A stretch of 64,000 bases of DNA from Escherichia coli (GCF_003334785.1 NZ_QOWV01000003.1); one strand, 5' to 3'. Counted from the stretch's first letter, positions 34,287 through 51,134 are shown. Numbers and translations: made by a program. The notes: a model not told the origin generated them from the letters alone.

Positions 34287-34853
34287 ATGGCAACGTACTA
34301 TAGCAACGATTTTCGTGCTGGTCTTAAAATCATGTTAGACGGCGAACCTTACGCGGTTGAAGCGAGTGAATTCGTAAAACCGGGTAAAGGCCAGGCATTT
34401 GCTCGCGTTAAACTGCGTCGTCTGCTGACCGGTACTCGCGTAGAAAAAACCTTCAAATCTACTGATTCCGCTGAAGGCGCTGATGTTGTCGATATGAACC
34501 TGACTTACCTGTACAACGACGGTGAGTTCTGGCACTTCATGAACAACGAAACTTTCGAGCAGCTGTCTGCTGATGCAAAAGCAATTGGTGACAACGCTAA
34601 ATGGCTGCTGGATCAGGCAGAGTGTATCGTAACTCTGTGGAATGGTCAGCCGATCTCCGTTACTCCGCCGAACTTCGTTGAACTGGAAATCGTTGATACC
34701 GATCCGGGCCTGAAAGGTGATACCGCAGGTACTGGTGGCAAACCGGCTACCCTGTCTACTGGCGCTGTGGTTAAAGTTCCGCTGTTTGTACAAATCGGCG
34801 AAGTCATCAAAGTGGATACCCGCTCTGGTGAATACGTCTCTCGCGTGAAGTAA
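34287..34853 (+). CDS. efp: translation elongation factor P
   Basis: 188-aa [49 protein letters not shown]... with the conserved KPGKGQA loop. Confidence 0.97.
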
Positions 34854-34904
34854 TGCGGTTGTGGTGCGGCCTGCAGGCTGCACCATCACTTATTCAGGTC
34901 AGAG

Positions 34905-35030
34905 ATGATGAAACGCCTTATCGTTCTTGTTTTGCTTGCCAGCACGCTGCTCACGGGCTGTAACACCGCTCGCGGTTTCGGCGAAGACATCAAACATCTC
35001 GGCAACTCCATCTCTCGCGCTGCCAGCTAA
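34905..35030 (+). CDS. ecnA: entericidin A small lipoprotein
   Basis: 41-aa ORF read by hand (absent from ORF track): [41 protein letters not shown]; lipobox LTGC. Confidence 0.8.
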
Positions 35031-35140
35031 TTTTTCTTCTCTTCCGAAAAATCATCAGATTCCCATCATTTTTGGCGATGTTGTCTATTATTAATTTGCT
35101 ATAGGCAAACATAAATAACATTACCTAAAAGGAAGACGTT

Positions 35141-35287
35141 ATGGTGAAGAAGACAATTGCAGCGATCTTTTCTGTTCTGGTGCTTTCAACAGTATTAACT
35201 GCCTGCAACACCACGCGTGGCGTTGGTGAAGACATTTCTGATGGCGGTAACGCGATTTCTGGCGCAGCAACGAAAGCGCAGCAATAA
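35141..35287 (+). CDS. ecnB: entericidin B small lipoprotein
   Basis: 48-aa ORF read by hand: [48 protein letters not shown]; paralogous to EcnA (CNTxRGxGEDI...GNxISxAA). Confidence 0.8.
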
Positions 35288-35292
35288 GCAAT

Positions 35293-35330
35293 AACGGTAC
35301 GACAGCTGTGTCGTGCCGTTTGTTTTTTCT
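35293..35330 (+). terminator. ecnB rho-independent terminator
   Basis: aacggtacgacag/ctgtgtcgtgccgtt hairpin followed by tttgttttttct. Confidence 0.65.
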
Positions 35331-35397
35331 GCGATAGTCACAAAGGTAATAGTTGAAATTCCCCTGCCACCTGGCAAAATATCCGTTCAACCATCAG

Positions 35398-50947: not shown

Positions 50948-51023
<76 letters not shown>

Positions 51024-51058
51024 AAATTTGAAAGTGCTGTAAGGCACAGACCACCCAA

Positions 51059-51134
<76 letters not shown>

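Follow-up and report, generated by a model that had tools for sequence, protein, structure and literature searches.

Entericidin genes ecnA and ecnB of Escherichia coli: a stationary-phase promoter within the intergenic spacer as the likely main source of ecnB mRNA

The ecnAB locus and its surroundings

The two short genes that lie in tandem between efp and sugE (= gdx) in the window, by which we mean the whole 64-kb stretch of Escherichia coli DNA analyzed here, are ecnA and ecnB, the chromosomal entericidin locus of this species (Table 1). The locus is already known, and was reportedly described by Bishop et al. in 1998, in J Mol Biol 280:583. A reading of the sequence alone had recognized two entericidin A/B paralogues of 41 and 48 aa, placed 110 bp apart between efp and gdx, and the coordinates, the family models, and RefSeq all bear it out. 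The ecnA peptide scores 114.9 bits against NCBIfam NF007319 (EcnA; equivalog cut-off 86) and the ecnB peptide scores 121.9 bits against NF007487 (EcnB; equivalog cut-off 94); when each is scored on the other's model the values are 44.5 and 46.5 bits, under the cut-off, and EcnA is thereby distinguished from EcnB. Pfam PF08085 (Entericidin) detects both (EcnA, E 7.6e-06; EcnB, E 5.9e-07). The same reading had described the pair as invisible to the ORF track, which is true in that both genes fall below that track's 60-aa cut-off, but not in any wider sense, as RefSeq annotates ecnA as 'lipoprotein antitoxin entericidin A' and ecnB as 'lipoprotein toxin entericidin B', along with efp and sugE. 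Curated family models and RefSeq annotation exist, and the finding of ecnAB is correct but ordinary.

Table 1. Positions in the window of the features of the efp-ecnA-ecnB region
Feature	Position	Strand	Description or basis
efp hairpin, GGTGCGGCC-TGCA-GGCTGCACC	34863-34884	+	directly after the efp stop codon; no U-tract in the window
ecnA CDS	34905-35030	+	41 aa, entericidin A lipoprotein precursor; RefSeq ecnA
ecnA signal peptide	34905-34958	+	predicted by the lipobox rule
ecnA lipobox LTGC	34950-34961	+	Cys19 = 34959-34961
ecnA-ecnB spacer	35031-35140	+	exactly 110 bp
ecnB promoter -10 block, TCTATTATTAA	35084-35094	+	sigma-S-type extended -10; conservation and published promoter
Candidate pause element, TGCTATAGG	35097-35105	+	agrees with the published pause motif, TGcTATA(A/C)T, at 7 of 9 positions (PMC5389655)
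ecnB Shine-Dalgarno, AGGAAG	35130-35135	+	5 nt upstream of ATG
ecnB CDS	35141-35287	+	48 aa, entericidin B lipoprotein precursor; RefSeq ecnB
ecnB lipobox LTAC	35195-35206	+	Cys22 = 35204-35206
ecnB intrinsic terminator	35293-35328	+	12-bp stem at 35293-35320, 4-nt loop, tail TGTTTTTT

Upstream of ecnA is efp, an ORF of 188 aa whose stop codon is at 34853, and downstream of ecnB is the 105-aa membrane protein gene sugE, which starts at 35465. An 801-bp stretch around the pair is identical (100% at the DNA level) to that of K-12 MG1655 and of many other strains; it is matched in 5426 of 5426 complete E. coli genomes, with 5420 of them covering at least 80% of it. The ecnAB genes of K-12 (NC_000913.3 4376317-4376442 and 4376553-4376699) are the same locus, with the same proteins, terminator, and sigma-38 promoter and with identical neighbors (epmB, efp, ecnA, ecnB, sugE/gdx, blc, ampC), and there is no difference between K-12 and the window at ecnAB. 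Published K-12 positions can thus be carried over directly, the genome coordinate being the window coordinate plus 4341412 at this locus (from the ecnA position given in a ribosome-profiling study). In the E. coli genome collection the efp-ecnAB-sugE stretch has 5431 matches, three of them plasmid-borne, and it is present twice in at least one genome; these plasmid or duplicate copies may be linked to the amplified or mobilized ampC-blc-sugE segments known from the literature.

Two other features of the window deserve mention. The 5' leader of sugE/gdx contains a guanidine-II (mini-ykkC) riboswitch (35399-35445, plus strand) with hairpin loops ACGA and ACGG, which scores 50.4 bits on Rfam RF01068 (gathering score 32). 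Near it is a promoter-like site (35353-35380), a published Term-seq 3' end labeled 'internal sugE' falls at window position 35464, at the gdx start codon, and the same riboswitch is found in Pseudocitrobacter and in another Enterobacteriaceae genome. Farther away, at 50948-51134 (plus strand), are only two tandem tRNA-Gly(GCC) genes. The K-12 reference has three (glyV, glyX, glyY), and the window would accordingly come from a strain with one copy fewer, despite an ecn region identical to that of K-12.

Conservation and features of the two lipopeptides

To place the pair in a wider context, a degenerate DNA pattern that specifies two entericidin cores 198-228 bp apart was run on one-genome-per-species collections; it returned 22 loci from seven genera (Escherichia, Enterobacter, Citrobacter, Pseudocitrobacter, Leclercia, Lelliottia, and Entomohabitans). 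In each of the genomes compared (23, the window and the 22 loci) neither ORF is disrupted, and the tandem order ecnA-ecnB after efp, given by RefSeq for the window, is the same in the other 22. Variation among the 23 genomes is concentrated at third codon positions: in the part of ecnA that encodes the mature peptide the variable columns at codon positions 1, 2, and 3 number 8, 6, and 22 over 23 codons, and in that of ecnB they number 4, 3, and 27 over 27 codons. Such a bias argues for purifying selection at the protein level in the annotated plus-strand frames, and mature EcnB is nearly invariant across the seven genera. Three other ORFs overlap the pair, two of them antisense (41 aa, 34886-35011, and 83 aa, 35139-35390, both minus strand) and one on the plus strand (55 aa, 34927-35094); we rejected all three as real genes because the codon-position variation fits the annotated frames. 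The start of ecnA may be 3 nt farther downstream than annotated. The gene opens with ATGATG at 34905-34910, and only the second ATG is present in several Enterobacter species, in Entomohabitans, in Leclercia, and in one Escherichia sp. (which has ATAATG), so that the start kept across genera is 34908; the precursor would then be 40 aa rather than the annotated 41, and the mature lipopeptide would be the same.

The translation on which the sequence-only reading depended is documented for ecnB, whose product is abundant in proteomics: EcnB is among the small E. coli proteins most commonly detected by mass spectrometry, with as many as ~70,000 copies in each cell grown in minimal medium, and its level in a clpP mutant is over 100-fold higher (PMC12529367), an increase that is consistent with control by RpoS. 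For ecnA, a ribosome-profiling study quantified the gene as a 'previously known sORF' at NC_000913.3 4376317-4376442.

The two peptides are plainly related, with 24 identities over 44 aligned positions (55%, E 4e-14), and this alignment upholds the shared CNTxRGxGEDI core that had been proposed for them. The core, CNT(A/T)RG(F/V)GEDI, starts at the lipobox cysteine in both and so directly follows the predicted cleavage site; it is also present in both ORFs of 22 of 22 related loci, although partly by construction, as the scan pattern demanded it. A signal peptide and lipobox cysteine had been claimed for each ORF as well, and both peptides conform to the PROSITE-type lipoprotein rule. Each has a basic N-terminus, with two K/R in the first 7 positions, then an uncharged stretch, and then L-T-G-C19 (EcnA) or L-T-A-C22 (EcnB), and lipidation of EcnB C22 is recorded by UniProt curation (quoted by PMC12529367). 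The lipobox would have each prolipoprotein exported, lipidated on this cysteine, and cut by signal peptidase II, giving predicted mature lipopeptides of 23 aa (EcnA) and 27 aa (EcnB) with Asn at position +2. Over 18 residues the helical hydrophobic moment has a maximum of 0.68 in EcnA, a value reached by 0 of 2000 shuffled sequences, and of 0.49 in EcnB, reached by 0.6% of shuffles. Judging from this sequence-based indicator, the bodies of the mature peptides, about 18 residues each, can form amphipathic helices.

Transcription of ecnA and ecnB

The terminator downstream of ecnB is strong and is used in vivo. Its predicted fold has an energy of -30.7 kcal/mol (z = -5.4), and the 'primary' 3' ends assigned to ecnB by Term-seq (Adams et al. 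2021), at genome positions 4376735/4376736, correspond to window positions 35323/35324, inside the T-run; they were found in all three conditions (LB OD 0.4, LB OD 2.0, and M63). The sequence-only reading had proposed both this clean intrinsic terminator and the lack of one behind ecnA, and stem, T-run, and mapped ends confirm the first, and several negative results agree with the second. No terminator-like site was found when the 110-bp spacer was scanned, the spacer folds no better than its shuffles (z = -0.6), RNAalifold identifies 0 conserved pairs among 18 divergent spacers, and neither the Term-seq nor the bicyclomycin tables assign a 3' end or a Rho-dependent region to ecnA, although low expression could hide one. 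Since nothing stops ecnA transcripts, read-through into ecnB is still expected, and the 35293-35328 terminator serves ecnB and any such read-through transcript alike. We also considered a hidden attenuator or other RNA element in the spacer and rejected it: the folding results are those just given, and an Rfam search at a permissive E value is empty there. In E. albertii and E. whittamii (loci L002 and L020) the ecnB terminator has lost its T-run; next to it come a REP-like palindromic insert, GCCGGATAAGGCGTTTACGCCGCATCCGGCA, and, beyond that, a second copy of the terminator's left arm, AACGGTGCGACAGCTGTGTCG, an arrangement that would fit the insertion of an element into the terminator.

A spacer that lacks a terminator and conserved structure, and one strong terminator that comes only after ecnB, are what would be expected of a single operon that owes its ecnB expression essentially to read-through from ecnA, the spacer being only a leaky gap, and reviews do name the pair the 'ecnAB operon'. 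We nevertheless regard this account as very improbable. Its difficulty is that the spacer contains a published and conserved promoter. The sigma-38 holoenzyme transcribes 'ecnB P' in vitro, whereas the sigma-70 holoenzyme recognizes it poorly; a C just upstream of the -10 element matters for sigma-38, the site for the repressor OmpR overlaps the start region, and sigma-38-dependent promoter-proximal pausing occurs at +17/+18, in a region that overlaps the OmpR site (PMC5389655). The same paper, citing Bishop et al. 1998, gives activation of ecnB in stationary phase at high osmolarity (PMC5389655).

We infer that the published promoter and pause element map onto exactly the bases listed in Table 1. 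The window has the hexamer TATTAT at 35086-35091, with the C favored by sigma-38 at 35085 and an AT-rich discriminator (C-TATTAT-TAA, 35085-35094). Sigma-S promoters have an extended -10 consensus of the TCTATACTTAA type, which the ecnB block resembles. The sequence TCTATNNTTAA is matched only once in the 64-kb window, at this block. Conservation points to the same bases. In an otherwise variable spacer there are two conserved islands, TTGTCTATnnTTAA (35081-35094) and the ribosome-binding region AAAGGAAG with its ATG, and across the seven genera no other non-coding part of the spacer is as well conserved as the TCTATTATTAA block and the ecnB RBS. The 16 columns from 35079 to 35094 include 8 that are invariant and have a mean identity of 0.88, whereas the 5' part of the spacer averages 0.72; positions 35126-35143 have a mean identity of 0.91, with the AAAGGA core of the Shine-Dalgarno sequence invariant in 23 of 23 genomes. 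Downstream of the -10 hexamer, GCTATA is kept in most genera. The numbering in PMC5389655 would put the ecnB start site at about 35097-35099, giving a 5' UTR of roughly 42-44 nt and an ecnB-only RNA of roughly 228 nt. The 110-bp spacer, then, serves in three ways at once: as a 3' untranslated region of ecnA that lacks a terminator, as the promoter of ecnB, and as the 5' UTR of ecnB.

At 35062-35070, just upstream of these elements, the window and K-12 read ATTCCCATC and the other aligned Escherichia read ATTTCCGTC; the two substitutions in ATTCCCATC make a small stem (CGTCA/TGGCG), which lies just 5' of the ecnB -10, less stable.

Published expression data bear on the contribution of this promoter to ecnB mRNA. 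The Term-seq count at the ecnB 3' end is 3,796 at LB OD 0.4, 145,410 at LB OD 2.0, and 96,649 in M63, a 38-fold increase from OD 0.4 to OD 2.0, over which interval the count at the efp 3' end declines 18-fold, from 42,717 to 2,315. An inhibitor of LolCDE raises ecnB expression 6.7- to 13-fold, and ecnA is not up-regulated (PMC5105897). A rise in ecnB accompanied by a fall in efp, together with induction that is independent of ecnA, cannot be explained by read-through from upstream, and can be explained by an RpoS promoter; the same observations weigh against a single operon. In addition, ecnB mRNA, which is repressed by the small RNA MicA, has been detected on 6% polyacrylamide gels (PMC3551931), a format for short RNAs that fits a short monocistronic ecnB transcript. 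The SMRT-Cappable-seq supplement (PMC6131387) has no entry for ecnA or ecnB, and a preprint on Xanthomonas ecnA does not discuss promoters or terminators.

That ecnA and ecnB differ in their response to stress could also mean that they are two separate units, with ecnA RNAs ending within the spacer by the action of Rho or by RNase processing and never reaching ecnB. Over its first 60 nt the untranslated spacer is richer in C than in G (13 C, 7 G), as Rho-loading sites are, and in several genera, the window not among them, weak stems of 5-7 bp with T-rich tails occur just upstream of the -10 and could attenuate read-through. Set against this are the short extent of the untranslated stretch (110 nt only), the lack of conserved structure in it, and the Term-seq and bicyclomycin tables, which, subject to the low expression noted above, offer neither an ecnA 3' end nor a Rho-dependent region. 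On balance we consider separation of this kind improbable.

There remains the source of the ecnA transcripts. A consensus sigma-70 scan found no promoter-like site upstream of ecnA or ecnB, but the strict scan also missed the real sigma-S promoter of ecnB. What lies upstream of ecnA is the efp hairpin, which has a predicted energy of -24.4 kcal/mol (z = -2.6) and is conserved in 13 divergent sequences, with 10 pairs, 4 of them with compensatory changes. The Escherichia hairpin has no U-tract, whereas the Enterobacter version has a T-run and scores as terminator-like. The 'primary' Term-seq 3' end of efp, at genome position 4376301, is window position 34889, only 16 nt upstream of the ecnA ATG, too close for a separate ecnA promoter to fit between the two. 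The hairpin is probably a leaky efp terminator, or a stabilizer of the efp 3' end, that ecnA transcription must pass, and ecnA probably depends on read-through from efp.

It seems very likely, taking the layout as a whole, that the stationary-phase promoter in the spacer is the main driver of ecnB. Three steps can be envisaged. Lacking a recognizable promoter of its own, ecnA would be made mainly from leaky read-through of the efp hairpin; the ecnA transcripts would continue through ecnB to the strong terminator behind it; and most ecnB mRNA would come from the sigma-S promoter in the spacer, which is on in stationary phase or in minimal medium and is repressed by OmpR, the mRNA in turn being repressed by MicA. 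The EcnA:EcnB ratio would depend on growth phase and not on an attenuator between the genes. The partial read-through from ecnA into ecnB that the sequence-only reading had suggested is therefore to be expected where no terminator intervenes, but as a minor route; that reading had overlooked the sigma-38 promoter of the spacer.

Related systems and the function of the entericidins

The ecnAB loci of Citrobacter, Enterobacter, Leclercia, and Lelliottia are like that of the window, with ecnA-ecnB after efp, the same -10 block and RBS, and a near-invariant mature EcnB. They differ from it in that only they have an opposite-strand gene between ecnB and sugE; in the window the guanidine-II riboswitch and gdx directly follow ecnB instead. 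In one of these loci (L007, 9718-10317, minus strand) the additional gene encodes a 199-aa LuxR/RcsA-like regulator, whose best NCBIfam match, RcsA, scores 51.6 bits, below the cut-off. We take this regulator to be, probably, the 'ecnR' of the Citrobacter entericidin locus.

Type I toxins (Hok, Ibs, Ldr, TisB) resemble EcnA and EcnB in being very small membrane-active peptides encoded by short ORFs that tracks miss, and the repression of ecnB mRNA by a small RNA, MicA, is a further likeness. Type I systems, however, pair an antisense RNA, the antitoxin, with a toxin that is a hydrophobic helix of the inner membrane and carries no lipid modification, whereas in ecnAB the antidote that has been proposed is itself a lipoprotein, a paralogue of EcnB, and export and lipidation are predicted for both peptides. 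The sole match to a type I toxin family in the profile search was Ibs_toxin, with a non-significant E of 2.5.

Membership of EcnA and EcnB in a toxin-antitoxin or addiction module comes from the literature and is disputed. Papers on entericidins quote earlier work in which overproduction of EcnB lysed the bacteria and EcnA supplied in cis offset this effect, and in which Flavobacterium was killed by an EcnB homologue that Enterobacter C6-6 secretes. On the account that we prefer, both entericidins are lipid-anchored amphipathic peptides of the envelope; EcnB at high dose would perturb membranes, and EcnA, as its paralogue, would compete or co-assemble with it. Alternatively, the pair may not be a toxin and antitoxin at all, but small envelope stress lipoproteins with a structural or adhesive role, the lysis being an artifact of overproduction. 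Several observations fit that alternative: an ecnA deletion is viable, and the mutant is in the Keio collection; cells in minimal medium carry ~70,000 copies of EcnB and do not lyse; ecnB is a member of the general RpoS stress regulon; and in many Proteobacteria ecnB-like genes occur without ecnA. Atu8019 of Agrobacterium, which like EcnB is a small lipoprotein with an entericidin domain and a lipobox cysteine, is unlike ecnAB in being a solitary gene and non-lytic, and it has been implicated in the docking of outer-membrane vesicles. The reported bacteriolysis and its neutralization by EcnA in cis, the killing by the Enterobacter C6-6 homologue, and the persistence of an intact tandem pair in 23 of 23 genomes speak the other way, and we lean against this alternative while granting it a real possibility.

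Two practical points follow. A floor of 60 aa for ORFs hides real and highly expressed genes, EcnB being present in tens of thousands of copies per cell, and the reasoning that the lack of a terminator means read-through is unsafe where an intergenic gap may hold a promoter. Beyond these, we offer a more tentative suggestion, one that we would sooner doubt than believe: that ecnA is made only from leakage past the efp hairpin, with no promoter of its own, while sigma-S drives ecnB. If that is true, the proposed antidote tracks the growth-phase expression of EF-P and the proposed toxin tracks starvation, and promoter logic alone would invert the ecnA:ecnB ratio as cells enter stationary phase.
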